46,630 nucleotides of DNA from Candidatus Hadarchaeales archaeon (GCA_038851075.1 JAWCLG010000007.1:1-46630); one strand, 5' to 3'. Numbered from the stretch's first letter, positions 28,483-46,630 are shown. A program made the numbers and translations. Notes: generated by a model from the sequence alone, not told the origin.

Positions 28483-29567
28483 AATATCGCCTTCTCGGTT
28501 TTACCGTCGAACACGTGAATTTTATCCGGGTCAAAGCGAACCATCACAGCCTTTCCAACCGCGGGCCTGATATTTGGAGGAGTTTTTGCTATTATCTTGC
28601 CCTTACCGGCTTTTAGATGGACGTAATTATCGGCACCCACCAGCTCAACCAGCTCTACCTTTGCGCTTATCCCCGCTCCTCGGATGCCATCAATCTTCAC
28701 ATCCTCAGGTCTAACTCCGATGATCACCTCAGAACCCGTCGCGCAGCTTTTTACCAGTCTTCCCTGTTTTCTATCGAGACCAACAGTGAACTCTCCAGCG
28801 TCGAGAAATATTTTTCCAGCCCGCTCCTTAACGGAACACTTTATGAAATTTATTGGAGGGGTGCCCACGAACCCCGCCACAAATGTGTCCACCGGGTGGG
28901 AGTATATCTCCTCTGGGGGGCCAACCTGTTTGACCGAACCGGCGTGCATGACCACCACCTTATCTCCCATGGTCATCGCCTCAAGCTGATCGTGAGTAAC
29001 ATGAATGGTCGTTGTCTTCAGTTCTCGCTGGAGATTTTTCAACTCTGCGCGCATGACCACCCTCATTTTTGCATCTATGTTTGACAGTGGCTCATCCCAG
29101 AGGAACACACTGGGCTCGCGCACTATGGCCCTACCCAGAGCCACGCGCTGCCTCTGCCCCCCGCTGAGCGCCGCGGGTCTTCGGCCCAGCAGCTTTTCGA
29201 TTTCAAGAAGCTCGGCGGCTTTTTTGATCCTTCTTGCGATCTCAGGTTCTTTATAGCCCATATTTCTGAGGCCGAAAGCCATGTTGTCATAGACGGTCAT
29301 ATGAGGATAAAGCGCATAATCCTGAAAAACCATGGCTATCTTCCTGTCCTTTATCGAGAGGTCGTTGACCCTCTGTTTTCCGAAGTAGATGTCTCCGCTG
29401 TCCGGAGTCTCAAGTCCGGCTATGATCCTCAGCGTAGTCGTTTTGCCACACCCGCTCGGCCCGACAAAAACCGCTAGTTCTTTATCCCTCACCTCTAGAC
29501 TAACGTTGTTTACAGCCACAGTGTCCCCAAATTTCTTCGTGATATTCTTAAGGACTACCTTGACCAT
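28479..29567 (-). CDS. Sugar ABC transporter ATP-binding subunit (MalK/MsmX type)
   Basis: GPSGCGKTT, VFQDYALYPHMTV, LSGGQRQR, DEPLSN, VTHDQ, C-terminal TOBE region. Confidence 0.93.
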   Translation of the reverse strand: MVKVVLKNITKKFGDTVAVNNVSLEVRDKELAVFVGPSGCGKTTTLRIIAGLETPDSGDIYFGKQRVNDLSIKDRKIAMVFQDYALYPHMTVYDNMAFGLRNMGYKEPEIARRIKKAAELLEIEKLLGRRPAALSGGQRQRVALGRAIVREPSVFLWDEPLSNIDAKMRVVMRAELKNLQRELKTTTIHVTHDQLEAMTMGDKVVVMHAGSVKQVGPPEEIYSHPVDTFVAGFVGTPPINFIKCSVKERAGKIFLDAGEFTVGLDRKQGRLVKSCATGSEVIIGVRPEDVKIDGIRGAGISAKVELVELVGADNYVHLKAGKGKIIAKTPPNIRPAVGKAVMVRFDPDKIHVFDGKTEKAIF

Positions 29568-31633: not shown

Positions 31634-32458
31634 TCAGGAAAATGCGATCCAGTCCACGTACAAAGTTCCGTTGACCGGCCCCTCAAACACCAAATTTATC
31701 TGTCTTAGGTCCTTGAGATTCAACCCTTCCGGGCCCACTGTGGTCGCTGGATTAAATTCGGTAAGGGGTATCACTATTTTTGTCCATCCCGTGTTTGCCT
31801 CTCTGTAAACTGATCCGCAGTGGGAACTCGTCGCGTTGTGTACTGCCGCTGATGTGAGGCTAGATATGTCAGCAGGAGCTACACCGAACAGAATTTGCGA
31901 AAGTTCGCTGGGAGTCTTGCCGTATTTCTCTACAGCAAGTGTCTCTCCCGATTCAGTGAAAACCTGCTCCGCCTTCGTCGCATCTGAGTGCTGCAGTGTG
32001 TCCTGAAGCTCCACCTTGAACCTCAGTTTCTTGTCCGCCTTCACTGCCATGTGAAGTTCCGTGTACGAGCTGACATCTCTGCCGCCACCTATCCTGACCA
32101 GTATCGGGTCCGTCGATATATCACCCGGAACTGCAAAGCTCCAGTATCCGCTCCAGGCCGCTGGCGGGACGTCTATGTTGAACCTGATTGCATATGAATC
32201 TCCGTCCACCACATCAAACCCGTAATAGTCTGCCCCACCGTCCGGAGGATAACCCCCCATCATTCCAGCGCTTGTTCCTGGAAAGCTTCCCAGACTCGCA
32301 TCGTCGAAGTCGTCGTAAATCAGTCCGCCTGTCGGTTTGGCAATAGGTGCGGATCCACCGCCCATGGACATCAATGCCAATGCCAGAACTGCCACAATTA
32401 CCACAACTATGACCACAGCCAACAGAATCTTTGTCTTTCCACCACCATTTCGCTCCAT
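31634..32458 (-). CDS. Membrane-anchored CBM11-like protein with a large loop insertion
   Basis: N-terminal TM; YDDFDD, WSGYW, DVSSY, FKVELQD, WTKIVIPL, LRQINLVF, LYVDWIAF. Confidence 0.7.
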   Translation of the reverse strand: MERNGGGKTKILLAVVIVVVIVAVLALALMSMGGGSAPIAKPTGGLIYDDFDDASLGSFPGTSAGMMGGYPPDGGADYYGFDVVDGDSYAIRFNIDVPPAAWSGYWSFAVPGDISTDPILVRIGGGRDVSSYTELHMAVKADKKLRFKVELQDTLQHSDATKAEQVFTESGETLAVEKYGKTPSELSQILFGVAPADISSLTSAAVHNATSSHCGSVYREANTGWTKIVIPLTEFNPATTVGPEGLNLKDLRQINLVFEGPVNGTLYVDWIAFS

Positions 32459-32642: not shown

Positions 32643-35558
32643 ATGCCCCGTAAAAGAAAGGGAGAACGCCGGAAGAAGAAAAAAGAAAACATCATGAGGA
32701 GACTTGTATTGTTTGTCCCTGCGGTTGTCGCAGTGATTATTCTGGCTGCTGTGCTAACCAGTTCATCGCCCAGCAAGAAGATGTGGATAACCGTTCACGA
32801 CCCATGCGGAGATGACTATGGGCCCGGAACATACACATACCCGGTGGACTACACTTTCAGAACAGAAAACTTCGGGAAGAGAGAATCATTTGACATAACT
32901 AAGTTTTCGACATATGAGGATGGAGACCAGCTGGTTCTGGAATATCGCCTTTCTCAGTCCATCGCCGACCCGTGGGGCGGGGAGCAAACGAAAAAGTATG
33001 ACATAAGCCTGCAGGCAATCGATGCCTACTTAGACACAGGGATATCTGGAGGATACACGGATCTCATATTCGATCAGACGATACCTGGTAACGTCGCAAA
33101 AAATCCGAACGGTACACTGAACGCTGTAATAGAGGCTGAATCCGACTGGGAATACGCTATCCGAGCGCAGGGATGGGAAGTAAGCATCTTTACCAACCCA
33201 ACTGGAGAAAACGGCGGGAAAAAATCGATGGGCAGGATGGAGGTGGACAAAGAGTCCGGCATCATCAGGATATACGCTCCAAAGAGTCTTATTGGGACGC
33301 CAGATTCAAGCTGGAAGATAACAACTTTTATTTATGGCATAGATTACGGGAACGCCAGGGTTGTCAACTCTCACGCATCCGGGTGGAATTTTGGAGGCGG
33401 AAGAGATGACAGCTGTGACCCCAACATCATCGATATTATCGTCCCTGAGGGGCATACTCAGGAAAGCGTTCTCGATTTCACGAGTTCTCCAGTTGTGCTC
33501 AAGGCGGTGCCATTCGGATCCGGGGAGTACACATCGAGCAAGGGGGCTGTTTCAGTCAGTCCGCAGCCCACCGGTCTTGATCCTTCCGAGATTCCACCGA
33601 CCGAAAACCTGCTGGACGAGATAGTCAGAAGAGGGGTAATGTACTTCTGGGACTGGGCAGACAATGAAACTGGTCTGATCAGAGACACGACAAAATATGC
33701 CTATGACGAGTTTCCCGCGAGTACGGCCTCCACCGGATTCGGTCTGACCGCCCTCATAATCGGGGCCCACAGGGGGTGGCTCGATAACAGCGCCGTTTAC
33801 AACAGGGTTCTCACAACGCTCCGAAGTTTTCATGATAACACGGATGATAATCCGAACGATCTGGTGGTGGATGGAGAAAACGGTCTCTTTTATCACTTCA
33901 TCAGGATGTCAACCGGAGACAGGTGGACTCCGTCATCGATGGGCAAACCTGGAGAATCATCAGAACTGTCAACCATTGATACGGCCCTCTTTCTAGCAGG
34001 AGCGATCACCGCCGGAGAATATTACAAAGGCACAGAAGTCGAGGAGATCGCCAGAGAGATATATGAATCGGCCGACTGGAGATGGATGCTGTCCCCTGAA
34101 AACCAGTTATACCACGGATGGACTCCGGAAAGAGGATATCTTCCGAATAAATGGGAATATTACTCCGAAGCAATGATCTTATATCTGCTGGCCATCGGAT
34201 CGCCAACCTATCCTATACCTGCGGAATGCTGGCATGCATGGGAGAGGCCGCTCAACTACGTCGGGACGACAAAGACGTACATAATGTCTCCTCCAGAAAG
34301 CCTGTTCACCTACCAGTACTCTCATGCGTGGATTGACTTCAGGGAAAAACATGACCACTATGCGAACTACTGGCAGAACTCGGTCTACGCCTGTCAGAAC
34401 AACCGTAATTTTGTCATATGGGTTGCGATAAACGGCCCGACTGACAGATACCTTGCATTTGACGATGATATTTGGGGTCTCACCGCGGGGGACGCTCCGT
34501 GCACAAAAACGGGATACAAAAACTACGGTGCAACCCTGGGAGGATATGATGGTACAATACATCCTTACGGGATGGTCGCTTCATTGCCGTTTGTACCTGA
34601 GCTGTCGCTGCGAGGCATAAACGCTCTGCTGGAAAGATATGGAAGGGAAATATGGAGAGAATACGGTTTCACAAGCGGATTCAATCCGGATGTGGACTGG
34701 TATTCACACGAGTATACCGGCATTGACGTAGGGATACAAGTGATTATGGTGCAGAACTACCTCGACAACTTTGTGTGGAATCTATTCATGAACAATGAGT
34801 ACATACAGAGGGCGATGACCCTTGCTGGATTCCAAAGCGGTGCGCTTGAAAATAAGAGGGCCATAACCGAAGAATATGAGAGGGAGTACACAGTGCCAAC
34901 TGAAACGAAAGAAGCAACCGCAAGAAGGGCTATGGTCGCGATCAACATTGATGGAAGATTGAACGACTGGAGCGGGGCAGAGTGGTATGCTGTACCGCCA
35001 AATAACAAAGTTATGGGGACCATACGCTTCGATATCGAAAATGTAAGCAGCGAGTTCTCAGCGATTTGGGACGATGAACATCTATATCTGGCATGCAACG
35101 TCACAGACACAATAGTTGTGTCAAACATAGAACCCGACGATGTCCACAGCCTGTACAGAAGTGACAGTGTCGAGTTCTACCTGCAGCCTGACAGATTCAT
35201 CTCAACCGCGACTGGAATATTCAAAATAGCGGTTATACCATTTGACACCTCCGGAAACCCACAGGCCTGCAGGCACGAGGACATGAACCCCGGTCCGATA
35301 TCGAGCGTCGCGCCAGGAATAAAAATAGGATCCAGCAGAACCTCATCTGGATATATAATTGAAGTTGCTATACCCTGGAGCTACTTACAGATAAACCCTG
35401 CATCCGGAGTAAAAATGGGGATAAACCACACCGTTCACAACACGTACTTCTCAAACGCAGAGCCAGGAGAGTATGTTAGGACTGCCATGCTCTCATGGGT
35501 TCGTGTCTCTGTGGTGTGGTCAAGACCGACAACATGGGGGGTTTTAACTCTTGAATGA
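32643..35558 (+). CDS. Multidomain GH144-type hydrolase: DOMON/glucodextranase-C-like + catalytic + CBM9-like domains
   Basis: DPCGDDYGPGTYTYP; STASTGFGL, GLFYHF, ELSTIDT, YSEAMILYLLAIGSP, LFTYQYSHAWIDFR, WGLTAGD, YTGIDVG; C-terminal IDGRLNDW...WDDEHLYLA..VTD...DSVEFY...GYIIEVAIPW. Confidence 0.82.
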   Translation: MPRKRKGERRKKKKENIMRRLVLFVPAVVAVIILAAVLTSSSPSKKMWITVHDPCGDDYGPGTYTYPVDYTFRTENFGKRESFDITKFSTYEDGDQLVLEYRLSQSIADPWGGEQTKKYDISLQAIDAYLDTGISGGYTDLIFDQTIPGNVAKNPNGTLNAVIEAESDWEYAIRAQGWEVSIFTNPTGENGGKKSMGRMEVDKESGIIRIYAPKSLIGTPDSSWKITTFIYGIDYGNARVVNSHASGWNFGGGRDDSCDPNIIDIIVPEGHTQESVLDFTSSPVVLKAVPFGSGEYTSSKGAVSVSPQPTGLDPSEIPPTENLLDEIVRRGVMYFWDWADNETGLIRDTTKYAYDEFPASTASTGFGLTALIIGAHRGWLDNSAVYNRVLTTLRSFHDNTDDNPNDLVVDGENGLFYHFIRMSTGDRWTPSSMGKPGESSELSTIDTALFLAGAITAGEYYKGTEVEEIAREIYESADWRWMLSPENQLYHGWTPERGYLPNKWEYYSEAMILYLLAIGSPTYPIPAECWHAWERPLNYVGTTKTYIMSPPESLFTYQYSHAWIDFREKHDHYANYWQNSVYACQNNRNFVIWVAINGPTDRYLAFDDDIWGLTAGDAPCTKTGYKNYGATLGGYDGTIHPYGMVASLPFVPELSLRGINALLERYGREIWREYGFTSGFNPDVDWYSHEYTGIDVGIQVIMVQNYLDNFVWNLFMNNEYIQRAMTLAGFQSGALENKRAITEEYEREYTVPTETKEATARRAMVAINIDGRLNDWSGAEWYAVPPNNKVMGTIRFDIENVSSEFSAIWDDEHLYLACNVTDTIVVSNIEPDDVHSLYRSDSVEFYLQPDRFISTATGIFKIAVIPFDTSGNPQACRHEDMNPGPISSVAPGIKIGSSRTSSGYIIEVAIPWSYLQINPASGVKMGINHTVHNTYFSNAEPGEYVRTAMLSWVRVSVVWSRPTTWGVLTLE

Positions 35559-35610
35559 CAAGACAACTTTTTTAAACACGTGGATTCCTAAAAACATGGG
35601 TGGACCGCAG

Positions 35611-36897
35611 ATGAATGGAAACTGCGGAAAAATTCCTGCAGCAATGGTCGCGGTGGCGGTTGTAGCTGTGGTGATAATAGCCGCCGTGGCTCTGATTCTG
35701 CCCGGCACGACACAGAGGGATAACACGACGTCTTCCGGAGGAATAGAAATCTACCACTATTGGACATCCGGGGTTGACAGGGATGCCATCAATGCTCTTG
35801 TTAGGTCGTTTCAGGACAATTACAACATCAACGTGAGCTCGAGCGGATTCACCGGATATCAGGACAAGATAAGTCTGGTTATCGATACCTCACCCCCAGA
35901 CGTGGCGGCACACTGGTTCAACAAATACTATAAAGACTATGCCTCGAGAGGTTCACTGCTCGACTTGACCGAATTCTGGGAAAACAACTGTCAAACGTAC
36001 CCCGAAAAAATAAAGGACCTGATAACAGTGAACGGAAAGATCTACGGCGTTCCTCTGGATATCCACTGGGAGGGAGGAGTGGTTTTGTACAACCTTAGAG
36101 TTTTAAGCAGCAAGGGCATCAACGTTCCAAATACCTGGGACGAATTTCAGGATATGCTGGACGAACTGAAGAGCAAAGGGGTCGAACGTCCGATAGCAAT
36201 GGGATTTGCCGATGCTTGGCCGAGAGACATGGTATTCACCGCAATTCTGGCCGCAACCGGAGGGGCAGAGTTCTATAAGGATCTCGCTGCAGGGAACGCG
36301 AGATGGACCGACAGCCGGGTCGTGGAAGCCTTCCAGATATACCAAGAGTGGTGTCAGAAAGGATACTTCGACCAGTCTGCCCCAGGCCTTGACTGGCAGG
36401 ATGCCTTAAACACGTTCATCTCAGGCGATACCGCTGTATATTTCATGGGGGACTGGGCCTGCGCTGCCCTCAAAAAGATAGGATGGCAGCCGAACGTCGA
36501 CTATTATGCGGATTTCATACCAACGAAAACAGGAGCGACTCCAATTGCCATACCGGACCTCGAGGGGTTCGTTGTCCCGGAGAGATCATCGAAAAAATCG
36601 CTCGCTCTGGAATTCCTCAAGTTCATATCAAGGGCGGAATCTCAGGTGACCTTTGCATCAATAAAAGGAAGCACAGCGCCCCACCCGAACGCGGACATCA
36701 ATCAGTATGGAGACAGCATACAGGTCAACATGTGGAACAAGGCTGAAGGAAGGGAATGGGCACTTCCCATAATGTGGTATTTCTCGCAAAACGTACGAAA
36801 CGAATTCGGTGACGGGATGTATGCCATATGGGACAATCCAGCAGGGGTCGACATTTCTGAGATCTGCGCCTCAATAGACACGGCTACACGGAGCTGA
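35611..36897 (+). CDS. Sugar ABC transporter solute-binding protein
   Basis: N-terminal TM anchor, IEIYHYWTSG, GKIYGVPL, VPNTWDEF, FMGDW. Confidence 0.88.
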   Translation: MNGNCGKIPAAMVAVAVVAVVIIAAVALILPGTTQRDNTTSSGGIEIYHYWTSGVDRDAINALVRSFQDNYNINVSSSGFTGYQDKISLVIDTSPPDVAAHWFNKYYKDYASRGSLLDLTEFWENNCQTYPEKIKDLITVNGKIYGVPLDIHWEGGVVLYNLRVLSSKGINVPNTWDEFQDMLDELKSKGVERPIAMGFADAWPRDMVFTAILAATGGAEFYKDLAAGNARWTDSRVVEAFQIYQEWCQKGYFDQSAPGLDWQDALNTFISGDTAVYFMGDWACAALKKIGWQPNVDYYADFIPTKTGATPIAIPDLEGFVVPERSSKKSLALEFLKFISRAESQVTFASIKGSTAPHPNADINQYGDSIQVNMWNKAEGREWALPIMWYFSQNVRNEFGDGMYAIWDNPAGVDISEICASIDTATRS

Positions 36898-36982
36898 TGT
36901 GTTTTGAACTCCCCATTCAGAGGGAGCACAGCATTGTTCCTGCGAAAACTGTTTTTTTATCTGAACCTGCAGGGGTGAAAAC

Positions 36983-38035
36983 GTGAGAAACGATGAGAAA
37001 ACCGCGTATATTTTTCTTGCTATTCCTCTCGTCTGCGTCGGCTTCATATTGTTCACAATTTTTTACCTGATTGGTTCCAGCTTTTTCACGAACGAAGGCC
37101 TCGGGTTCCAGAACTATGTCAGACTTTTCACATTGGACCAGTATTTCTGGCCCGCCCTCTGGCACAACGTCTTCTGGATGATCTGGGCCGTTCTGGTTCC
37201 GATAGGCATTGGGCTGATTTTCGCAACGTTGCTCAGCCGCAACATAAGGGGGGAAAACATCTTCAAAGGAATAATCTACTTTCCGGCCCTGCTCGCAGGC
37301 GCGACGATAGGCGTCATATGGAAATGGTTCTATCTTCCGAGAAACGGGGTGATAAACTCAATCCTGAAGGGATTCGGGCTGATGGGACTCGGCAATCCGA
37401 CCACCGAGCTGTGGATAAACAACTCATCACCGCCGGTTCCTCTTCTCACGATAATCTCGCTGCCGATCTTCTTCGTATCAATTCTGCTGATTGCCCTCAC
37501 ATTTTCTCCGAGAATATCGAGGTTGAAGCTGGGTCTCGTTTTGGGAATCGGAGGAATCGCATTTCCCATATGGCTCTTCCTATCCGGTGCGGTTTCCACC
37601 TCCCTGGTGTCCATCCTCATAGCTTCAAGCTGGGCAGGTTCAGCTGTTTCAATGGTGATGTTCCTCGCAGGAATGCAGGCGATACCCAAGAGCCACATAG
37701 AAGCAGCGAAGGTTGACGGTGCAAGTGAATGGCAGGTGCTCCGTCACGTTGTGCTTCCGGCACTGAAGCCGGTGATGGTCACTCTGATAATACTCTCTGC
37801 CATAAGCTCCATGAAAGCATTTGATCTTGTGTACACTCTTGCCGGACAGGAGGGCGGCCCCGGACACCATGCCGCAGATGTGCTTGCGCTTTACACCTTC
37901 CGAACCCTGAAATCGAGCCAAGACTTGGGCGGGTACAGCTATGCGAGCACGATAGGGTTCATAGGAATACTCGTATCCTTGGTTCCAGTCATTCTCTACA
38001 TGATAATGCTGAGGAGAAAGGAGGAGGATACATGA
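36983..38035 (+). CDS. Sugar ABC transporter permease (MalF/UgpA type)
   Basis: GFQNY, EAA loop LAGMQAIPKSHIEAAKVDGASEWQ. Confidence 0.9.
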   Translation: MRNDEKTAYIFLAIPLVCVGFILFTIFYLIGSSFFTNEGLGFQNYVRLFTLDQYFWPALWHNVFWMIWAVLVPIGIGLIFATLLSRNIRGENIFKGIIYFPALLAGATIGVIWKWFYLPRNGVINSILKGFGLMGLGNPTTELWINNSSPPVPLLTIISLPIFFVSILLIALTFSPRISRLKLGLVLGIGGIAFPIWLFLSGAVSTSLVSILIASSWAGSAVSMVMFLAGMQAIPKSHIEAAKVDGASEWQVLRHVVLPALKPVMVTLIILSAISSMKAFDLVYTLAGQEGGPGHHAADVLALYTFRTLKSSQDLGGYSYASTIGFIGILVSLVPVILYMIMLRRKEEDT

Positions 38036-38865
38036 CGCTTCAAAGAACGATTCTTTACATCGCAATCATCCTACTATGCGTGGTGTGGATAGTCCCTCTG
38101 GTTACTGTTGTATTCGCCTCATTCAAACCCGAGGCCGAAATACTTGGAGGAAATCCGCTCTCACCTCCCTCCAGCATCTACCTTGGCAATTATTCTGAAA
38201 GTCTGACGGAGGGGAGTCCTCCGCTCGTGAACGCCTTCGTGAACACGCTGATAATAACTGTCTTTGCGGTCCTTGGGTCAGTCTTCATAGGAGCACTTGC
38301 GGCATATCCGCTGTCGCGCCTTAAATTCAGGGGCAGCAACATGATCTACATGATCTTGATATTCGGTATGATGTTTCCGCACCAGCTTGTCATGGTGCCT
38401 CTATATCAGACGGCTAATTTTCTGGGACTGTACGGATCGGTTACGGGTAACTTCATCGCAGTTATCCTTGCTCACATAATTTTCGGAGTACCATTCTGCG
38501 CATTCATCCTCGCCGGATTTTTCAGAAACATACCCCGGTCACTTCAGGACGCGGCAATGATGGACGGATGTTCTCATTTTTCGTTCTTTTACAAAATCAT
38601 CCTGCGACTGGCTCTGCCGGCTCTGGCGGTTATTTCGCTTCTGCAGTTCACAGGGATATACAACGATATGCTTTGGGCGCTGGTATTGATGAGGGACTCA
38701 AGCACTTACCCGGTAGCCACAACACTGGCAAGTCTTTCCACGACTTCAGGGACCCCATACGGACTCCTATGCGCTGCTGGTTTTCTTGCAGCACTGCCAA
38801 CTCTGCTGCTGTTCGTTTTCCTCCAGAAATATTTCATAAAAGGGCTCGCCGCTGTTGGGAGGTAA
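38032..38865 (+). CDS. Sugar ABC transporter permease (MalG type)
   Basis: AAYPLSRLKFRG, IPRSLQDAAMMDG, FLQKYFIKGL; ATGA overlap. Confidence 0.9.
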   Translation: MTLQRTILYIAIILLCVVWIVPLVTVVFASFKPEAEILGGNPLSPPSSIYLGNYSESLTEGSPPLVNAFVNTLIITVFAVLGSVFIGALAAYPLSRLKFRGSNMIYMILIFGMMFPHQLVMVPLYQTANFLGLYGSVTGNFIAVILAHIIFGVPFCAFILAGFFRNIPRSLQDAAMMDGCSHFSFFYKIILRLALPALAVISLLQFTGIYNDMLWALVLMRDSSTYPVATTLASLSTTSGTPYGLLCAAGFLAALPTLLLFVFLQKYFIKGLAAVGR

Positions 38866-38866
38866 A

Positions 38867-41245
38867 TCATCCCATTATTACCTTTACTCTGTGGACACCT
38901 TTCTTCTTCGGTTGAGGAATAATCTTGCCAGCCACAGGTTTTCCGTCCAGCAATATCTTCACCACACCTTTTGAGACGTGATTCGGGTTCTCCACATCTA
39001 TCTCGTACCTGATCCCCCTGAAAGTTCTCACCATCTTAAATCCCGGCCAGTCACTAGGGATGCACGGATCCACCAGCAGCCCTTTTTCAACAGGCCTGAT
39101 CCCCAGAATCCATTCTGTTGATATTTTGAAGAGCCATGCGGCTGATCCGGTGTACCATGTCCAGCTGCCCTTGCCGTAAAAGGCCGACTGCGGGCCATCA
39201 GTGTTTCCCGGAAGCACATAAGGCTCTCCCTGATAAACATCCGGATTGGTTCCTCTGAGCGGCGGGCAGATCTTTCTGAAAACGCTATATGCCCTGTCAC
39301 CGTCTCCCATCTTGCAATACGCGAGAATACACCATGTAGCTGCATGCGTGTAGACTCCACCGTTCTCTCGCATCCCAGGAGCGTACCTTGTCAGGTATCC
39401 AATATTCTCATCAGGTACAGAATACCCAGGATAGAGAAGCAGCGGTCCATAATCCTTCATCAGGTTTTTCTCCACTGACTCCATCGCTTTCATGGCTCTC
39501 TCCGCCGGGGCTGTTTCGTTTATGATTGACCAAGTCTGGGCATTCAGGTATATCTTTCCCTCTCTGCATTTTTTACTCCCGATGAGGTCCCCGTTGTCCT
39601 TGGTCGCCCTCCAGTACCACGAACCATCCCACCCGTACCTGTTGATGCTTTTCTTCAACGCCTCTGCTTTCTTAATGTAGACGTTTGCCGTTTTTCCGTC
39701 CCCCATTTTTTTGCAGACTTTTGAAAATCTCAGGAGAACCCCGCAGAGGAAGTGAGCCAGCCATATTGACTCACCCTTCCATTTCAGGCCGACTGAACTC
39801 AGGCCATCATTCCAGTCCCCCGAGCCTATCAGCGGGAGACCGCGGGGACTCATTCTGGAAAGCGCCAGGTCGATAGCCCGTTTGCAGTGCATGTAAAGCG
39901 ATTCTGAGGGGGCATCCACGTACCGGACTCGCTGTTTCAGAATGCTCCAGTCTTCGGTCTCCTCAAGATAAAACGTCAGAACATAGGGCAGCCATAGCAT
40001 GTTGTCGCTGATATTCGTTCTCATTCCGAGCTCGGTGATCGGGTGCCACCAGTGATACACCGTTCCGTCCTTAAACTGATGCTCCGCATGCAATAAAATC
40101 TGCTTTCTTGCAAGGTCGGGTCTCAGAGGTATCAGCAGGAGACTGCTCTGCAGCTGATCTCTGAAACCGTAGGCGCCAGAACACTGATAGTATCCAGTTC
40201 TCGCCCAGAGATGCCCAGATACGGCCTGATATTTGAGCCAGTAATTATTCATTAGATTAAAACCAGGATCAGGAGTGCTAACTGTCACCCCGGACAGGAA
40301 CTCCTGCCAGAATTTTTTTACATCAAAAAACGCCTTATTCACATTTTTCTCATCACTGTACCTCTTCAGCAGGCGCTTGGCTTCGGCTGCCGGTGCCGCT
40401 CCAACTGTAAATATCAGAACCTTTTCCTCTCCAGCCTCCAGAAGTACCTTCACATGAAGACTTGCGATACTGTCATAAAATTTTCCAACGGTCCTGCTGA
40501 GGGTACCTCTGACAACGGAGGCGGGCCTGGATATGCCTGAAGATCTGCCAAAAAACGAAAGTTTGTCTCCCTCATACCCTGCAGGCTCGACGTTCACACC
40601 GTGAAATCCTTCAAGGGCTACCTCTGGTCTACCAGTGCTTATATATGAGGGAACCGGAAGCGGTCTCTTCTTAGCGAAAATAGCGTGTGCCTCGCTGTCA
40701 TAGGCCGTCTCTATAAATGTGCGGTGAAACTCCCTGTGAGTGTCAGTCCCGTTTCCAAGGCACCACTCGAAGTACGTAAAAACACTCAGCTCCATTTTAC
40801 CGGACGTGGTGTTCTTCAACGTGACCTTCCATATCTCGAGAGGCTCTCCCGGTGGGATAAAAACGAGCATTCGTGATAAAAGTCCGTTCTTTCTGCTTTC
40901 TATTTCAGTGTACCCGATTCCGTGTTTCACTTCATATTTATCGAATTCTGGGCAGCAGGGTTTCCACGTGAGCGACCACACTTCTCCTGTTCGATCATCT
41001 CTGATGTACACGTACTTTCCGTATTCGTCTCTGACTAGGTCCTGATGCCAGATATTCACCCTTGCGAGAGCTGAATTTCCCCTCCAGCTGAAACCGCTGC
41101 CCGCCTGGGAGATGACCAGCCCGTAATCACCGTTGCATATAACGTTGACCCATGGTGCAGGGGTATCAGGCCTCATGATTATGAACTCATCTCCGGATTC
41201 TGAAAATTTTCCATACTTGCTCTCGAAAAGCCCCTTTCCTGCCAT
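38867..41245 (-). CDS. GH94 glycoside phosphorylase (cytoplasmic)
   Basis: TPAPWVNVI, YQCSGAYGFRDQLQ, HWWHP, GDWNDG (catalytic Asp), RENGGVYTHA, WYTGSAAW; no signal peptide. Confidence 0.92.
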   Translation of the reverse strand: MAGKGLFESKYGKFSESGDEFIIMRPDTPAPWVNVICNGDYGLVISQAGSGFSWRGNSALARVNIWHQDLVRDEYGKYVYIRDDRTGEVWSLTWKPCCPEFDKYEVKHGIGYTEIESRKNGLLSRMLVFIPPGEPLEIWKVTLKNTTSGKMELSVFTYFEWCLGNGTDTHREFHRTFIETAYDSEAHAIFAKKRPLPVPSYISTGRPEVALEGFHGVNVEPAGYEGDKLSFFGRSSGISRPASVVRGTLSRTVGKFYDSIASLHVKVLLEAGEEKVLIFTVGAAPAAEAKRLLKRYSDEKNVNKAFFDVKKFWQEFLSGVTVSTPDPGFNLMNNYWLKYQAVSGHLWARTGYYQCSGAYGFRDQLQSSLLLIPLRPDLARKQILLHAEHQFKDGTVYHWWHPITELGMRTNISDNMLWLPYVLTFYLEETEDWSILKQRVRYVDAPSESLYMHCKRAIDLALSRMSPRGLPLIGSGDWNDGLSSVGLKWKGESIWLAHFLCGVLLRFSKVCKKMGDGKTANVYIKKAEALKKSINRYGWDGSWYWRATKDNGDLIGSKKCREGKIYLNAQTWSIINETAPAERAMKAMESVEKNLMKDYGPLLLYPGYSVPDENIGYLTRYAPGMRENGGVYTHAATWCILAYCKMGDGDRAYSVFRKICPPLRGTNPDVYQGEPYVLPGNTDGPQSAFYGKGSWTWYTGSAAWLFKISTEWILGIRPVEKGLLVDPCIPSDWPGFKMVRTFRGIRYEIDVENPNHVSKGVVKILLDGKPVAGKIIPQPKKKGVHRVKVIMG

Positions 41246-41423
41246 CTCATCCCCGTCTTTTCCCACTGAACTAACTCGTTATTTAAGACTTTTGAGTAAC
41301 ATGGGGGATTAAAAAAAATACGAAATCTTTAAGTTTCTCAAGATTTTTGCAATAGATCCAAAGCGTGAGCTGAGGTAAAGTTAAAAACCGAGTGGAGGAT
41401 ATTAAACCGCAAAAGGTGATGAT

Positions 41424-42611
41424 ATGCCCCAAGCACCCGATATGGAGATATATCATTTCTGGACAGGGCACGAAGAGGCCCCAGTAAATGCCCTCCTCAA
41501 TGCCTTTGAAAAAAAATATGGGATGAAGATAGGCAGGAACGCAATGGAATGGAGCGTTTACTCAATGGTAACCAAAGCCATGCTGATCGGGGGAAACGCT
41601 CCGGACTTGATGGTTTACGACATCGGGCAGAGGATACGCGAATCGGCTAGAATAGGCGAGCTGAGCCGCCTGGACGATGTATGGGGCGCCGAATTCTCAA
41701 AATTATATCCGGAGTGGGTGAAGGACGCCTGCCGGGATGGGGAAAACACCTATGGGGTGCCCATCAAGCGATTCACTTTTGTGGTTTGGTATCTCAAGGA
41801 CGTGTTCCAAAAGTACCGCATATCTCCTCCGGAAACATGGGACGATTTTATTGATATCTGCAAAAAATTCGAAAAAGCAGGCCTTCCGCCCATGGTTGCG
41901 AGTGACTGGGAAATATCGATGTGGTTCGAGAACATTCTGGCCCGCACGGTCGGACAGAAGTTCTACAACAGGCTCATGAACGGGGATGAGAAATGGACCG
42001 ACCCTAAAGTGATCGATGCCTACGAAACTCTACAGGAGATGGCCCTCAACTACATGATACCATATCCGTTCACCAACAGTTTCAAAGAATCGTGGGAAAT
42101 CCTGAACAAACGTGAAGCGGGGATGCAGCTTCAGGGTGACTGGGTCAACGGAATGTGGAGGCGCAGGTACAGGTATGCTCCAGGGAAAAACTATGATTTC
42201 TTCCCGGTACCCCCCATCGACAAAAGAATAGGTCAGATAATGGTCGCAGGCGGTAACGCGTGGGTTATACCAGAAAAGGCCAAAAACGCAGAAAACGCTA
42301 GGAAATTTTTAAGGTTTGCAGGATCGGTCGAAGGACAGCGCATACTCGTAAGGAAGGGGATGGGTTTGGCCGGGAGTAACTATGTGGGAACCGAAAACTA
42401 CGATGCTATCTCAAGGAGGCTAATCGAATACCTGGACAGATTCCCCACGGTCCTTCAGATGGACGCCATTTTGCCCTACAGCGTTTCAAGCGTTGAGAAG
42501 CTACAGCAGATGCAAATTGTGCTTGGGCAAAAAACAAAAAAGACTGAAATCAAAAGGCTTCTATCCGAAATCGACACCGCGACGGATAAGATAAAGCACG
42601 CCAGAGAGTGA
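41424..42611 (+). CDS. Sugar-binding protein homologue lacking a signal peptide
   Basis: EIYHFWTG, YGVP, PETWDDF, LQGDW. In-frame TAA at 41403 and SD AGGTGAT support the start; no hydrophobic N-terminus. Confidence 0.8.
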   Translation: MPQAPDMEIYHFWTGHEEAPVNALLNAFEKKYGMKIGRNAMEWSVYSMVTKAMLIGGNAPDLMVYDIGQRIRESARIGELSRLDDVWGAEFSKLYPEWVKDACRDGENTYGVPIKRFTFVVWYLKDVFQKYRISPPETWDDFIDICKKFEKAGLPPMVASDWEISMWFENILARTVGQKFYNRLMNGDEKWTDPKVIDAYETLQEMALNYMIPYPFTNSFKESWEILNKREAGMQLQGDWVNGMWRRRYRYAPGKNYDFFPVPPIDKRIGQIMVAGGNAWVIPEKAKNAENARKFLRFAGSVEGQRILVRKGMGLAGSNYVGTENYDAISRRLIEYLDRFPTVLQMDAILPYSVSSVEKLQQMQIVLGQKTKKTEIKRLLSEIDTATDKIKHARE

Positions 42612-43375
42612 TCTTTTTGAGAAAGATGGGAACTGTGGTTGGCGTATTTTCAGCAAAAGGTGGTGTCGGAAAAACGACGGTCGTAGTGAACCTTGGAACA
42701 GCTTTATCCGATATGTCCAAGGGCAACGTGATACTGGTAGAAACCAATGTCACCGTTTCCACCCTCGGACTGTATTTCGGCATGACGAAACCTCCAGTTT
42801 CCATTCAGGACATACTCATGGGCAGGGTGGAAGTGGAAAGCGCAATTACAAGATATGAAAATAAACTTGATGTGCTGCCCGGTGATATTGGATTTTCGAG
42901 AGAATTTGGAAAACTTGATATGGGCTCCCTGATAGACCCCCTCAGGAAAAAATACGGTATCATACTGATAGACTCATCTCCGGGTTTTGGTCTCGAAGTA
43001 TATTCTGGACTTAAAGTCTGCGATGAAATCCTGATCGTATGTCAGCCTGAGATACCATCAGTTCTCGGGGCGCTTCAGACATACCGGGTCGCGGATGAGC
43101 TCAAGATACCTGTGGTTGGAGTGGTCATCAACAGAGTCACAGGAAAAGATTACGAGATACCGGTCAACGATATAAAAAAGACATTCGGAGGTGCGGTTGT
43201 CTCAGTTATCCCGGAAGACCCAAAAGTTCCTGAAAGTGTTGCGATAGGTAGGCCGGTGGTACTATCGGCGCCCGATTCGCCGGCAGCGGTAGAGTTCAGA
43301 AGACTGGCACGCAGCTTCTATGCCAGGATAAAAAGCCAGAAACGCGTAAAATTCCTGAAGAAAACGGTAAAATGA
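42608..43375 (+). CDS. MinD/ParA family ATPase
   Basis: KGGVGKTT deviant Walker A, IDSSPG, GVVINRV, IPEDPKVPES, SPAA; GTGA overlap with the preceding gene. Confidence 0.88.
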   Translation: MIFLRKMGTVVGVFSAKGGVGKTTVVVNLGTALSDMSKGNVILVETNVTVSTLGLYFGMTKPPVSIQDILMGRVEVESAITRYENKLDVLPGDIGFSREFGKLDMGSLIDPLRKKYGIILIDSSPGFGLEVYSGLKVCDEILIVCQPEIPSVLGALQTYRVADELKIPVVGVVINRVTGKDYEIPVNDIKKTFGGAVVSVIPEDPKVPESVAIGRPVVLSAPDSPAAVEFRRLARSFYARIKSQKRVKFLKKTVK

Positions 43376-43498: not shown

Positions 43499-45217
43499 AT
43501 GAAGAAAAACAACAAAATCCTGGCCCTGGAAATTGCGTTCCTGTGCGGAATGCTGCTGGCAACTGTATCAACTGTGGGAGTTGTCGGCGCTTCCGGAGAT
43601 CTCAACTTCTGCGATTTCGAAACCCCTGGCTTCACCAGCTTGGGCGGCGGAAGGGGGGCAATGGAATCAACTACTGGCCTCATCACCGAAAACGACGTTT
43701 CTGGCGGAGTCAGCGGTAAGGCTCTCAAGCTCACATATAATTTCTCCAGCACACAGTGGTGCGGTTACTGGATGTTTTTCAAAGCAGATCAAACTGAGTA
43801 TAATGTCAGCGGATACACTCACATTAAGATGTGGGTGAAGGGAGCTTCTGGAAACGAGATATTCAAGCTCGAGCTGCAGGACACCGATGGCGGAGGAAGC
43901 TACAAGACCGGGATATCGGTGCCAAGCACATCATGGACTGAGATAAGCATCTCGCTATCGGACTTCACCAAGATACCGTGGTACCAGGAACCTGCAAATC
44001 TGTCCAAACTGAGACAGATAAACATAGTATTTGATGTTGCACCCAGGAACAGCACGGTTTACTTTGACGAAATCCGGTTTATCTCCGGTTCATCACCTCC
44101 ACCTCCTACTCCATCTGGGAACGAGCTGATCGTGGATGATTTCAACGACGGGAGCGGGCCAAACAACCTGGGTGGAGCATGTGGAGCTATGGGGGACTCT
44201 GGCACCGAAATAAGTGAGAACTATGTCACAGGCGCATATGAGGGACAATATGCCCTCAGGCTCACGTATGATCGCAAAACAAGCTGGGTCGGGTACTGGA
44301 CATTTATGAAACCAGACCAGAGTGGCTACGATGTAAGCGGATACGAGAATCTGAAAATCGCCGTCAAGGGGGCCTCAGCTACCGAGATGAAGATAGAGCT
44401 TGAAGATGAGTCGGGCGGAGCGAGCTACAAGTACATCAATGTGCCCGCCTCTAACTGGTCGGAGGTCACCATACCGCTATCATCCTTCCAGAAAATCCCG
44501 TGGAAGGAATCGGCCGCGGATCTCTCAGATCTGAAGCAGATCAATCTGGTCTTTGACAAGAGCCCCAGCACGAACACGGTGTATGTCGATATAATAAGGT
44601 TCGTGTCCTCAAGCTCACAGGGTGGGACCACACTTGTCTATGTGTCTCCGGCGAGCCAGCAGGTGGTCGGTGACAACGCATTCAGCGTAGATATAAAAGT
44701 CACACCGGGTACTGCAATCTCTGGAATGCAGGTGAGCCTGAAATTCGACCCATCGCTGCTGAGCGTGACAAGCGTGGCTGAAGGCGATCTGCTGTCTCAG
44801 GGCGGCTCGACTTACTTCGGCGTTATAAAAATCGACAACGAAAACGGAATAGTCACCGGGATTTACGGCGTGGTGCTCGGCTCCGGAACCGTGTCAACTC
44901 CGGGAACTTTTGCAAAAATATACATGAAGGGCAAGATGGTCGAAGGAACATCGCAGCTTCTGCTGGAAAACGTGATTGTCGGAGACGGCCAGGGCAACTC
45001 TGTCAATGTCTCGGTTGAGAACGGTTCCGTTACACTGCTGCCTTACCCTGATTGGGATGTGAACATGGACGGACACGTCAACGTGCTGGACATGATAGTG
45101 GTTATCCAGAACTGGGGCAAAACCGGAGCTCCGCACTGGATCAGATCGGATGTAAACCGCGATGGAAAAGTAAACGTGCTCGACATGATCCTCATAGGAA
45201 AGAACTGGACGGGATAG
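43499..45217 (+). CDS. Secreted scaffoldin-like protein: CBM11-like x2 + cohesin + C-terminal dockerin
   Basis: Signal peptide; two WxGYW/ELxD CBM repeats joined by SSPPPPTPS; cohesin pattern VYVSP..FSVDIKV..GMQVSLKFDPSLLSVTSVAEGDLL..GTFAKI..GTSQLLL..NGSVT; paired Ca loops DVNMDGHVNVLD and DVNRDGKVNVLD. Confidence 0.82.
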   Translation: MKKNNKILALEIAFLCGMLLATVSTVGVVGASGDLNFCDFETPGFTSLGGGRGAMESTTGLITENDVSGGVSGKALKLTYNFSSTQWCGYWMFFKADQTEYNVSGYTHIKMWVKGASGNEIFKLELQDTDGGGSYKTGISVPSTSWTEISISLSDFTKIPWYQEPANLSKLRQINIVFDVAPRNSTVYFDEIRFISGSSPPPPTPSGNELIVDDFNDGSGPNNLGGACGAMGDSGTEISENYVTGAYEGQYALRLTYDRKTSWVGYWTFMKPDQSGYDVSGYENLKIAVKGASATEMKIELEDESGGASYKYINVPASNWSEVTIPLSSFQKIPWKESAADLSDLKQINLVFDKSPSTNTVYVDIIRFVSSSSQGGTTLVYVSPASQQVVGDNAFSVDIKVTPGTAISGMQVSLKFDPSLLSVTSVAEGDLLSQGGSTYFGVIKIDNENGIVTGIYGVVLGSGTVSTPGTFAKIYMKGKMVEGTSQLLLENVIVGDGQGNSVNVSVENGSVTLLPYPDWDVNMDGHVNVLDMIVVIQNWGKTGAPHWIRSDVNRDGKVNVLDMILIGKNWTG

Positions 45218-45219
45218 GT

Positions 45220-45936
45220 GTGTTCAAGGCAAGGCTCTCTCTAATGGCCTTGGCCCTGACCTCTTTTGTTATAGTTTCCTGTGGGGGGCTGGCAGGCGCT
45301 CTTGGCTCCGGCACGATTGAGGTTTACCCGAACTCAAAGACTGTGGAACTCGGCAAAGAATTCAGCGTAGACATTGTAGTCAGCGCGACTGTACCAGTAA
45401 CCGGAGTGCAGTTTGATCTCAGGTTCGATCAGTCTGTGCTCAGAGTGACTAAAGTTGAAAAGGGAAACATATTCAGTGAAGGATTCTTCCAGGTGATAGG
45501 CGGAGTAAACAACACTACCGGAACTGTCAGCGATGTTGTTGACGTATCAATTGGGCCGAGCACAACCACAGGCGGGGTGGTCGCGAAGGTGTACTTTGAA
45601 ACTGTGACAAAAGGCAGCTCACAGATTATCCTTGAAAACGTGATAGTCGGCGACGAGAATGCCAGCAATTTGTCCGTTTCCGTGAGAAGCGGAACTGTGT
45701 ATGTCATTGAGCCAGTAACTGGAGATAATCAACCTTCCGAGAATACTCCGAGCTCACAGCAGGGGGGACCTCAGTCGCAAGAAAACAGGCGGTCTGCGGC
45801 GCCCCAGTCTGCAATTGATATAACGATTCCGCTCATGGCTGGGCTGGGGCTTTTAATCGGTTCCATTGTGTCGCTTATGATATTCAGAAAGAGAACGACA
45901 TACGGAGAGCAAAACAAAAATGAATCGATATGGTAA
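45220..45936 (+). CDS. Cell-surface anchoring cohesin protein (signal peptide + cohesin + linker + C-terminal TM)
   Basis: GTG start 2 nt after the previous stop; FSVDIVV..GVQFDLRFDQSVLRVTKVEKGNIF..GVVAKVYF..GSSQIIL..SGTVYV; P/S/Q linker; IPLMAGLGLLIGSIVSLMIF-RKR. Confidence 0.8.
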   Translation: MFKARLSLMALALTSFVIVSCGGLAGALGSGTIEVYPNSKTVELGKEFSVDIVVSATVPVTGVQFDLRFDQSVLRVTKVEKGNIFSEGFFQVIGGVNNTTGTVSDVVDVSIGPSTTTGGVVAKVYFETVTKGSSQIILENVIVGDENASNLSVSVRSGTVYVIEPVTGDNQPSENTPSSQQGGPQSQENRRSAAPQSAIDITIPLMAGLGLLIGSIVSLMIFRKRTTYGEQNKNESIW

Positions 45937-46630
45937 ATCTTCTAGTTTTGGTCCAAGGGAAAAGTTGTCCAGGATCGCTTTTTGCTGTTCAATAGCAATC
46001 CTGCTTGTACTACTGATTAACTCGACTGCAATATCGGCCGCAGATCTTGTATACGATGATTTCAATGACGGTGAAGCAGGGACGAATCAGGGGGGGCTGG
46101 TCGGAACGATGTCCCCGGATCTAAACGGTGACAACGTTGGGGAGTACGACCCGACGGTAAACTTCACGAATGACAGTTATGAGGGGTCATTCGCTTTATC
46201 ATTGACCTATTCCATGCCCTCAGGGCAGTGGTGCGGTTACTGGAGCTATGCGAATGACACAGATCCAAACAGTCCTCCTCAAAGCACGATTGACGTCAGC
46301 GGATATGGTGAGCTGAGGTTCGCGGCCAGAGGGACCAAAGGCAACGAACAAATCAAGGTTGAGCTGACGAGCAGTTCTTCTGAGGCAAGCTACAAATACG
46401 TCACGGTCCCGGGAACGAGCTGGGGGGAGATCGTGATAAAACTCACGGAATTAACAAAAGTCCCATGGATTCCAAACCCCGTCAATTTATCGGCCCTTCG
46501 CCAGATCAATTTTATTTTTGACAGATCACCATACAGCAGCACCGTTTACCTCGATTACATACGCTTCACTGGCGGCACCTCTGCTCTGCAGAACCCGACC
46601 GCGAGCTTCACCTACTCTCCAGCATCCCCA
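45920..46630 (+). CDS. Secreted CBM11-like + PKD-domain protein, runs off the right edge
   Basis: Not in the ORF track. Hand translation from ATG 45920 is open to the end: signal peptide, VYDDFNDG, WCGYW, DVSGY, IKVEL, LRQINFIFD, YLDYIRF, then NPTASFTYSPASP (PKD start). Confidence 0.78.
   Translation, partial: MNRYGKSSSFGPREKLSRIAFCCSIAILLVLLINSTAISAADLVYDDFNDGEAGTNQGGLVGTMSPDLNGDNVGEYDPTVNFTNDSYEGSFALSLTYSMPSGQWCGYWSYANDTDPNSPPQSTIDVSGYGELRFAARGTKGNEQIKVELTSSSSEASYKYVTVPGTSWGEIVIKLTELTKVPWIPNPVNLSALRQINFIFDRSPYSSTVYLDYIRFTGGTSALQNPTASFTYSPASP

Follow-up and report, generated by a model that had tools for sequence, protein, structure and literature searches.

A putative cohesin-dockerin surface tether for glycan-binding modules in a predicted β-glucan utilisation locus of a Hadesarchaea-like archaeon

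To our knowledge, cohesin-dockerin genes of archaea have been known since the Archaeoglobus fulgidus genome without being assigned a physiological role, and we know of no link between the A. fulgidus pair and carbohydrate-active genes. That archaeon reportedly has two cohesins and one dockerin, with ORF2375 carrying both kinds of module. Here we analysed a 46,630-nucleotide (nt) stretch of DNA from a Candidatus Hadarchaeales archaeon (GCA_038851075.1, JAWCLG010000007.1:1-46630; hereafter the window), which is the whole contig C7 of a 1.009-Mb assembly (G000; 29 contigs, 88% complete). Three open reading frames (ORFs) with the same orientation at 43499-46630, here called genes 1 to 3, include one whose product combines carbohydrate-binding modules (CBMs) with a cohesin and a dockerin (gene 1) and one, directly behind it, for a cohesin with a membrane anchor (gene 2). 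They probably encode a minimal tether, free of enzymes, in which a cohesin-dockerin pair holds glycan-binding modules at the cell surface, as part of a β-glucan (probably β-1,2-glucan) utilisation locus of a Hadesarchaea-like hot-spring archaeon.

According to excerpts of PMC9705933, A. fulgidus ORF2375 has a dockerin (aa 432-506) that shows strong and specific binding to the cohesin (aa 29-162) of the next gene, ORF2376. As far as these excerpts describe the genes, the two systems share a tandem arrangement in an archaeon, with a C-terminal dockerin encoded upstream and an N-terminal cohesin downstream, and the fold of the gene 1 cohesin matched that of A. fulgidus 2xdh with a target-based TM-score (TMt) of 0.80. 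The sequences are far apart, and PDB sequence searches with our proteins retrieved no A. fulgidus chain. In contrast to A. fulgidus, two CBM11-like modules are present on the dockerin protein here, the cohesin protein encoded downstream is equipped with a C-terminal membrane helix, and the genes are co-inherited with a locus for glycoside hydrolase (GH) families 144 and 94 and an ATP-binding cassette (ABC) importer. Because of the CBMs and the co-occurrence with GH144/GH94/ABC genes, we regard the pair as a variant of the A. fulgidus type.

The single-cohesin anchors of the clostridial cellulosome (Clostridium thermocellum OlpA and OlpC; 3ul4, 4dh2) are similar in their type-I-like dockerin with two calcium loops and their cohesin jelly-roll, and the matches to these clostridial complexes were weak in sequence and clear in fold. 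By analogy, a surface-anchored single cohesin would take up a dockerin protein in both cases, with a CBM on a non-catalytic subunit. However, dockerin-bearing enzymes and a multi-cohesin scaffoldin are both absent here, a membrane helix replaces the surface-layer homology (SLH) or sortase attachment, the CBMs are CBM11-like instead of CBM3, and the presumed substrate is a soluble bacterial glucan instead of cellulose.

The polysaccharide utilisation loci (PULs) of Bacteroidota encode surface glycan-binding proteins (SGBPs), which are non-catalytic lipoproteins that work together with SusC/D. By analogy with them, gene 1 would be a surface-held non-catalytic binder in a locus with surface glycanases and an importer. 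The two are not homologous, and cohesin-dockerin tethering and ABC import dependent on a solute-binding protein (SBP) are used here instead. A weak Pfam SGBP_B_XBD match on gene 1 (2.4e-4) lay under the cut-off and does not count as a sign of kinship. The pair is thus built like that of A. fulgidus and may work like a PUL surface glycan-binding protein.

Gene 1 resembles the adaptor scaffoldins (excerpts of PMC4959524) in having both a cohesin and a dockerin, and could thus bridge an anchor and a further dockerin protein; unlike them it has one cohesin only, and the sole available dockerin would be that of another gene 1 copy. For anaerobic methanotrophic archaea (ANME), excerpts of PMC9012536 describe proteins with several cohesins as well as dockerins located on SBPs or S-layer proteins. 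They propose that such proteins fix functional proteins to the outside of the cell, and call the significance of archaeal cohesin/dockerin proteins unclear. The ANME proteins are likewise archaeal surface proteins with both modules, whereas the excerpts describe no link to a CBM/GH locus; S4 Data of the same paper lists ANME cohesin/dockerin proteins and might include CBM-bearing ones.

Bacterial β-1,2-glucan clusters, in the excerpted text of PMC12102758, comprise an extracellular GH144 enzyme (SGL) and a GH94 phosphorylase. The locus studied here shares an extracellular GH144-type glucanase, ABC import and GH94 with them, but it is archaeal, its GH94 is of the 800-aa cellobiose-phosphorylase/Cgs-domain type, and a CBM/cohesin-dockerin apparatus is added. 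The word "archaea" occurs 0 times in the main text of PMC12102758 and 0 times in a 2025 cellulosome review. A literature search, with supplements outside its scope, found no report linking Hadesarchaea to cohesins or dockerins, or archaeal cohesin-dockerin proteins to carbohydrate genes.

Domain architecture and conservation of the pair

Genes 1 and 2 have the following features (positions in the window).

43499..45217, plus strand: gene 1, 572 aa, with signal peptide, CBM11-like modules a and b, cohesin and dockerin (Pfam, AlphaFold2, Foldseek)
43595..44089, plus strand: CBM11-like module a, residues 33-197 (Pfam CBM_11, CIA30 and CBM30; AlphaFold2; Foldseek)
44117..44611, plus strand: CBM11-like module b, residues 207-371 (Pfam; folded in the AlphaFold2 model)
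44621..45046, plus strand: gene 1 cohesin, residues 375-516 (Pfam 3e-10; genome scan 1.6e-11; Foldseek)
45056..45214, plus strand: dockerin, residues 520-572, with the calcium-loop/helix repeats DVNMDGHVNVLD and DVNRDGKVNVLD (Pfam 4e-9)
45220..45936, plus strand: gene 2, 238 aa from GTG 45220 (230 aa from ATG 45244), with signal peptide, cohesin, stalk, membrane helix and basic tail
45301..45714, plus strand: gene 2 cohesin of the anchored type, residues 28-165 (Pfam, lineage-specific model)
45814..45885, plus strand: C-terminal membrane helix of gene 2, approximately residues 199-222, followed by RKR (hydropathy windows)

Gene 1 encodes a secreted product without a membrane anchor of its own, and the signal peptides of its orthologues are of the classical AXA type. 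Pfam CBM_11 matched two stretches of the protein (6.7e-21, 75.6 bits; cut-off 27), Cohesin matched residues 391-512 (40.9 bits) and Dockerin_1 (PF00404) residues 520-566 (37 bits; cut-off 22.9), while CIA30 matched as well (4.5e-13). The AlphaFold2 model, built with 24 relatives in the alignment, had a mean pLDDT of 83.9 and showed four separate folded domains (~33-197, 207-371, 376-515 and 520-570). In Foldseek comparisons, the model matched CtCBM11 with a TMt of 0.73-0.75, and its cohesin matched known cohesins with a TMt of 0.74-0.80, the highest value being that of A. fulgidus 2xdh. Modelled alone, module a reached a pLDDT of 97.4, and its top match was CtCBM11 6r31 (query-based TM-score, TMq, of 0.80; root mean square deviation of 2.5 Å; 16% identity), followed by CBM30 and then CIA30/NDUFAF1 (TMq of 0.71). 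Modules a and b are 52% identical in the alignment. Both belong to CBM11 as defined in CAZy by sequence and fold, with CBM30 and CIA30 matching too, and they sit on a non-catalytic subunit, where their ligand binding is putative. Family CBM11 binds β-1,4 and β-1,3-1,4 glucan in its concave cleft, and in view of the β-1,2-glucan-type locus the modules studied here may have another specificity. The order CBM-CBM-cohesin-dockerin, originally predicted for gene 1 from the DNA alone, was thus borne out by Pfam, AlphaFold2 and Foldseek, and the domain search matched all three families.

Dockerins bind calcium through loops of the F-hand motif. The dockerin of gene 1 is of type I, with two calcium-loop and helix units, as indicated by the Pfam score, the conserved loops and the modelled helices (529-537 and 560-568). 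Across 24 sequences, D520, N522, D524 and D531 are nearly invariant in the first loop, and D551, D555, G556 and D562 are invariant in the second. A by-eye count on the translation gave 14 of 22 identical residues between the two repeats; as in dual-binding clostridial dockerins, this would fit two equivalent binding faces. The gap between cohesin and dockerin is ~5 residues.

By its sequence, gene 2 encodes a type-I membrane protein that shows one cohesin on a short stalk, the latter rich in Q, S and P and ~35 residues long. Its cohesin matched Pfam Cohesin at 4.2e-6 (27.4 bits; cut-off 24.1) and the lineage-specific model at 1.2e-29, and shares 38% identity with that of gene 1. Membership of the Pfam Cohesin family (PF00963), which has a nine-stranded jelly-roll fold, was found by sequence and fold for gene 1 and by sequence for gene 2. 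The true start is more likely GTG 45220 or ATG 45244, just past the TAG of gene 1 at 45215-45217, than the listed TTG 45052, which lies inside gene 1 and is unlikely. We also considered a lipoprotein, with "IVSC" ahead of the cohesin, and rejected this idea, since ordinary sites of the VSA-Q type, lacking Cys, are present in the orthologues. No PGF-CTERM or other sorting signal was found among NCBIfam matches on gene 2 or on the gene 3 paralogue described below. Genes 1 and 2 are 2-26 nt apart and the overlap of gene 3 with gene 2 is 17 nt, which confirms that three secreted genes are tightly packed, and genes 1 to 3 look like one operon. The original prediction called gene 2 an anchoring scaffoldin; Pfam, the lineage-specific model and hydropathy support the cohesin with a C-terminal membrane anchor, and the anchor anatomy (N-terminal cohesin, stalk, helix, basic tail) stands, whereas a cellulosome-like enzyme scaffold around it does not.

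We searched relatives of gene 1 with a word-indexed search of 5.8 billion proteins, in which 8000 candidates were scored, and just 14 others among these reached E≤0.001; the same kind of search with gene 2 retrieved nothing besides the window's own protein. Among 40 related genomes, which together with G000 form our comparison set (n=41), homologues of gene 1 were found in G010 (95% complete, 9 contigs) and G022, and weak CBM-only matches in G001. In all four pairs that we examined, one each from G000 and G010 and two from G022, the gene directly downstream of the cohesin-dockerin gene encodes a membrane-anchored cohesin. The products have 565 and then 222 aa in G010; in G022, a 668-aa protein is followed by a 626-aa cohesin-CBM-transmembrane protein, and a 402-aa protein by one of 250 aa. 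A tree built from 15 cohesins placed the six anchored members in one group with moderate support (86/88), apart from the cohesins of the cohesin-dockerin proteins.

Wider contig scans retrieved two genome loci and five distant metagenome loci, and a close gene 1 orthologue with a glycan locus was found in neither genome locus nor in the three metagenome loci looked at. The genome loci were an Omnitrophota protein with CBMs only, from a metagenome-assembled genome (MAG), and, in a "Planctomycetia" bin, a 4.2-kb contig that encodes CBMs together with the cohesin-dockerin unit. Two of the metagenome loci encoded a bacterial protein with several CBMs and PKD but no cohesin, and cohesin-bearing beta-helix proteins, respectively; in the third, a beta-helix cohesin-dockerin gene was followed by an N-terminally anchored cohesin-dockerin gene. 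Prediction of a complex between the gene 2 cohesin (residues 26-165; alignment of 6 rows) and the gene 1 dockerin (residues 513-572), run without controls, gave scores of 0.30 and 0.25 against a mark of 0.32 and speaks neither for nor against the pairing.

Pfam scans of the G000 assembly found one dockerin and two cohesins. Hidden Markov models built from the modules of this lineage and run with all filters off against 13,028 six-frame ORFs of G000 retrieved nothing beyond the same three modules (next best E≥0.48). G010 also has one dockerin, on the gene 1 orthologue, and two cohesins over the cut-off. G022 has three dockerins and four cohesins over the cut-off plus one degenerate cohesin, located on CBM/cohesin proteins or small proteins and in no case on an enzyme. 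No dockerin-bearing enzyme was found in G000, G010 or G022, nor any multi-cohesin scaffoldin, each cohesin protein having a single cohesin. Cohesins and dockerins are present as in a cellulosome, but dockerins on catalytic subunits and a multi-cohesin scaffoldin are not, and therefore the system is not a cellulosome-like enzyme scaffold. The original prediction had suggested such a scaffold, with the caveat that neither hydrolase of the window bears a dockerin. The caveat extends to the whole assembly, where the genome-wide scan for other dockerin-bearing carbohydrate-active enzymes found none, and the scaffold fails on a single dockerin and two single-cohesin proteins in both G000 and G010.

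One of the G022 dockerins is on a 213-aa protein (L018 7184-7825), where the dockerin is intact and the cohesin is a truncated, fast-evolving remnant with a tree branch length of 3.1-3.5. This protein looks like a decaying cohesin-dockerin cassette.

Genomic company and the carbohydrate link

The small-subunit ribosomal RNA of the assembly scored 671 bits against the archaeal model, and the source organism is archaeal. Hadesarchaea MAGs account for those few homologues of the flagged proteins that are named, the closest among them, which together with the ribosomal RNA bears out the archaeal host claimed at the outset. Near-identical DNA was present in sequencing runs from one study labelled hot springs metagenome (4 DNA rows); the listing contained no RNA runs with this DNA, which has no bearing on expression.

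The GH144-type domain PF10091 was present in 3 of the 41 genomes (G000, G010 and G022), and a dockerin over the cut-off in the same three. These represent three genera, and the other sampled members have neither PF10091 nor a dockerin; G034 has a sub-threshold dockerin-like match interrupted by two in-frame TGA codons, and no PF10091. All three carriers share the gene order GH144, CBM (minus strand), GH144-CBM9, SBP, two permeases, GH94 (minus strand), a second SBP (SBP2) and a MinD-like gene. In G022 the locus is split, with contig C34 ending after GH94 and contig C27 beginning with SBP2 and the MinD-like gene, followed by the cohesin/dockerin cluster. Furthermore, in a 1366-aa protein of G010 (L022 2842-6942 = C1 12841-16941), a PF10091 domain is joined to three CBM96 modules and to a pair of CBM11/30-like modules, and this pair is 47% identical to residues 10-368 of gene 1. 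CBM fusion, co-inheritance with GH144-type genes and synteny together argue that the carbohydrate link of the cohesin-dockerin genes is real. Co-occurrence with the hydrolase and importer genes in related genomes, on which the original prediction had staked itself, has thus survived. The 1366-aa protein is also of interest as a multi-CBM glucanase carried by a 1.1-Mb archaeal genome.

The glycan genes of the window are as follows.

22255..22860, plus strand: 201-aa N-terminally anchored protein with a single CBM, 69% identical to module a of gene 1
28479..29567, minus strand: MalK-type ABC ATPase
29667..31592, plus strand: GH144-type enzyme a, 641 aa, PF10091, N-terminal membrane helix (PDB 5gzh, 4gl3)
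31634..32458, minus strand: 274-aa N-terminally anchored protein with one CBM11-like module
32643..35558, plus strand: GH144-type enzyme b, 971 aa, with N-terminal membrane helix, Glucodextran_C, PF10091 and CBM9
35551..38865, plus strand: membrane-anchored SBP1 and two ABC permeases
38867..41266, minus strand: GH94 phosphorylase without signal peptide (closest solved structure: cyclic β-1,2-glucan synthase GH94 domain)
41424..42611, plus strand: SBP2, with a solute-binding-protein fold and no N-terminal signal or anchor
42608..43375, plus strand: MinD/ParA-like ATPase, whose start overlaps the SBP2 stop by 4 nt (kept upstream of the cohesin/dockerin genes in G022)

The adjacent GH144-type enzymes and ABC importer named in the original prediction were all found: two PF10091 proteins, GH94, two SBPs, two permeases and a MalK-type ATPase. 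Enzyme a matched the endo-β-1,2-glucanase 5gzh (3.8e-49) and 4gl3 (1.5e-63) in the PDB, and GH94 matched the GH94 domain of cyclic β-1,2-glucan synthase best (7.9e-161). A PF10091 glucanase, a sugar ABC importer and GH94 thus lie together, as in a GH144-type β-1,2-glucan locus by gene content, with the activities being predicted. Both GH144-type proteins, SBP1 and the two single-CBM proteins have N-terminal membrane helices, and GH94 has none. Since both PF10091 proteins are anchored by helices of their own, they have no need of a dockerin.

The SBP2-MinD/ParA gene pair with its 4-nt overlap (window 41424-43375; L023 16751-18675; L018 108-2102) is kept in all three locus-bearing genomes, with identities of 48-50% and 40-63%, and may encode a cytoplasmic sugar sensor with a positioning ATPase. 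The G022 cohesin/dockerin cluster has as its neighbour a GH2-family protein (L018 10147-14000 and L025; contig C27) of >1,800 aa, whose frame is still open where the contig stops. This protein contains Laminin_G_3 and PKD domains followed by more beta-sandwich-like repeats, and no dockerin in the part available.

Gene 3 and other CBM carriers

45920..46630, plus strand: gene 3, first 237 aa, with signal peptide, CBM11-like module and the start of a PKD domain; runs off the contig

Gene 3 had been read as a CBM-PKD gene cut by the contig end, and its missing part had been proposed as a possible dockerin carrier. A Pfam scan of gene 3 gave no match, even at E≤1. Its module is 45% identical to module b of gene 1 (3.1e-39), and its final residues are those of the beginning of the PKD domain in a paralogue on contig C13 (1075-2238, minus strand), which has a signal peptide, a CBM, PKD at 211-291, a linker, a membrane helix and an RKRNK tail. 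These identities confirm the CBM-PKD reading.

The contig breaks because of a 287-nt exact inverted repeat (window 46520-46630; C13 1-102 and 1391-1677) common to gene 3 and the C13 paralogue. The last 111 nt of the window are identical to paralogue positions 562-672, and the first 102 nt of C13 to positions 747-848, in opposite orientation and in frame. A possible source run yielded a 287-nt contig with a depth of 12.9 (flanking 6.35) that covers the window's last 111 nt and 176 nt beyond; as 287 = 111 + 74 + 102, this contig matches the predicted two-copy repeat exactly. Contigs from two other runs extend 176-189 nt beyond the window end. In the protein sequence encoded by C13:2-331, the latter half of a PKD domain (profile positions 40-77) leads into a G/P-rich linker and a membrane helix, and RRK then precedes the stop. 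The next C13 gene encodes a 215-aa winged-helix-like protein with orthologues of 47-55% identity that occupy the corresponding position in the loci of G010 and G022. Because the repeat identities, the double-depth 287-nt contig and the conserved next gene agree, we infer that C7 joins C13. Gene 3 is then most likely a ~371-aa CBM-PKD protein with its own C-terminal anchor, and its presumed continuation on C13 shows a membrane anchor instead of the proposed dockerin. The 287-nt repeat suggests a recent gene conversion between the two CBM-PKD genes.

The 215-aa gene stands at the locus end in all three genomes (C13, L019, 409-1056; L018 6229-6879, minus strand; L023 18679-19311, minus strand). 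Its Pfam matches are weak, with RepL in G022, the winged-helix family HTH_24 in G010 and none in G000, and its product may regulate the surface genes. The neighbour of the CBM-PKD paralogue, C13 2295-5288 (minus strand; L019), encodes a 997-aa right-handed beta-helix protein (NosD/Beta_helix) with a weak pectinesterase match and an N-terminal anchor.

The CBM module has further carriers in G000 besides the 201-aa and 274-aa proteins and the C13 paralogue. A protein on contig C8 (5369-7471; L020 1370-3469) starts with an N-terminus of the archaeal type IV pilin class (Pilin_N 1.7e-7), beyond which lie several CBMs, and an ORF of ~930 aa on contig C3 (7319-10120, minus strand) weakly matches the gene 1 CBM in its C-terminal part, with an N-terminus that is pilin-like by eye. 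The module thus appears to be a recurrent theme of the predicted surface proteome. Pilus assembly genes, homologues of T2SSE and T2SSF, lie in the window at 17543-21176.

Proposed mechanism and alternatives

We propose by analogy that the gene 1 dockerin binds the anchored gene 2 cohesin in a calcium-dependent manner, because ORF2375 and ORF2376 of A. fulgidus pair in this way, the gene pairing is conserved, and no other dockerin is available for gene 2 in G000 or G010. The tandem CBMs would thereby be kept at the cell surface and capture glucan for the anchored GH144-type glucanases; oligosaccharides would enter via the SBP/ABC system, and the cytoplasmic GH94 would phosphorolyse them. Gene 3 and the C13 paralogue may add CBMs held directly by their own C-terminal helices. 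In the least supported step, a daisy chain could form if the cohesin of gene 1 accepts the dockerin of another gene 1 molecule. The ~5-residue gap between cohesin and dockerin argues against fold-back docking.

Taken to its full extent, this step would make gene 1 the monomer of a self-extending, non-covalent, calcium-dependent surface polymer, a CBM "brush" on the gene 2 anchor that feeds β-1,2-glucan import; we put this forward tentatively and hold it to be doubtful. If it were true, the C-terminal cohesin-dockerin cassette (at least 131 clusters from uncultured archaea and bacteria, with CBM arrays, beta-helix proteins, peptidases and binding proteins among the carriers) would be a general daisy-chaining module that needs no multi-cohesin scaffoldin.

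Several observations weigh against an enzyme-free tether for glucan-binding modules. The CBM modules share just 16-20% identity with CtCBM11, and their fold is also that of the non-lectin CIA30. The gene 2 cohesin barely exceeds its Pfam cut-off, and a PDB sequence search with it gave no match at E≤1. The system occurs in just 3 of the 41 genomes and these are kin, so the co-occurrence is unusable as a statistic. In G010, ~21.7 kb separate the pair from the glycan locus and its neighbours have housekeeping functions (DNA ligase, diadenylate cyclase, adenylosuccinate synthetase, helicase), so adjacency is not obligatory. The score of GH94 with cellobiose phosphorylase (3.7e-141), the next solved structure, is near that of its best match, so β-1,2 specificity is a best guess only.

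The cassette is also widespread. An exhaustive HMMER search of representative proteins with residues 370-572 of gene 1 gave 6725 matches at E≤0.001, 1561 at ≤1e-10 and 131 representative clusters at ≤1e-30, many of which carry the whole cassette C-terminally; the top match was from a Dehalococcoidia bacterium. From 150 matches listed, ten were picked for a full-length match and a long N-terminal part and scanned, and nine of them contained both Pfam modules and one contained CBM11/30. The partner domains had no glucan link and included beta-helix/NosD, S8 peptidase, lysozyme-like, SpoIID/BACON, periplasmic binding protein and C39-like domains. Beta-helix proteins were frequent carriers of the cassette. 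Since the cassette is found on varied non-glucan proteins, bacterial ones among them, the tether is generic and not confined to archaea; what is specific to this system is its cargo and genomic company.

The alternative that survives best is that the same assembly serves as an adhesin, attaching a small-genome archaeon to a glucan-rich biofilm matrix or to bacterial partners more than capturing glucan for import. The genome of ~1 Mb, the CBM module on many surface proteins, including those with type IV pilin N-termini, the pilus assembly genes in the window and the unlinked G010 pair are all consistent with it, and excerpts of PMC9012536 propose ANME cohesin-dockerin proteins as mediators of cell-surface and cell-cell contact. 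However, the cohesin-dockerin genes strictly co-occur with GH144-type genes at the genome level, the importer adjoins the pair in G000 and probably in G022, and a GH144-type enzyme carries the same CBM pair in fused form. We consider adhesion as the main role unlikely, although adhesion and capture are not mutually exclusive and can coexist.

It is less likely still that gene 1 only assembles with itself, as a head-to-tail dimer or polymer, and that the gene 2 cohesin has another partner or none. The short gap, which disfavours intramolecular docking, leaves the intermolecular kind, the cassette recurs as a unit in very many proteins, and the dockerin repeats, with 14 of 22 residues identical, would fit two equivalent faces. 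Yet an anchored cohesin gene directly follows the cohesin-dockerin gene in all four pairs, gene 2 would be left without any other dockerin partner in G000 or G010, and the A. fulgidus precedent, as excerpted, pairs a dockerin with the neighbour's cohesin.

We also considered that the CBM11-like modules are CIA30-like protein-binding or structural beta-sandwiches and that a general tether stands beside glycan genes by chance. This would suit the Pfam CIA30 score, the Foldseek match to NDUFAF1/CIA30 and the lack of a Pfam CBM match on gene 3, but the top matches in both sequence and fold are CBM11 and CBM30, G010 has the module as a fusion with a GH144-type enzyme that also bears three CBM96, and the genes co-occur with GH144-type genes, which makes it very unlikely. 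A true cellulosome-like scaffold with its dockerin-bearing hydrolases in the unassembled 12% of the genome could draw on the repeats that break the assembly (this contig ends in one) and on the three dockerins of G022, but it is highly improbable given the single dockerin of the more complete G010, the non-catalytic proteins that bear all three G022 dockerins, the complete and self-anchored hydrolases of the locus, the lack of any protein with more than one cohesin and a predicted gene 3 remainder free of dockerin.

The reading that we prefer remains a minimal cohesin-dockerin tether that shows glycan-binding modules at the cell surface. Its role is directly testable with a handful of recombinant domains. 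Few thermostable orthogonal cohesin-dockerin pairs are available (excerpts of PMC6394049 list those of A. fulgidus and a few clostridia only), and for that reason a pair from a hot spring would be useful for designer complexes. For the biology of these archaea, the locus ties an archaeal cohesin-dockerin pair to carbohydrate use in three independent ways, by CBM fusion, co-inheritance and synteny. The proposed design would differ from that of the cellulosome, in that the tether shows binding modules and the enzymes anchor themselves, and the predicted gene content would extend β-1,2-glucan-type utilisation loci to an uncultured archaeal class.

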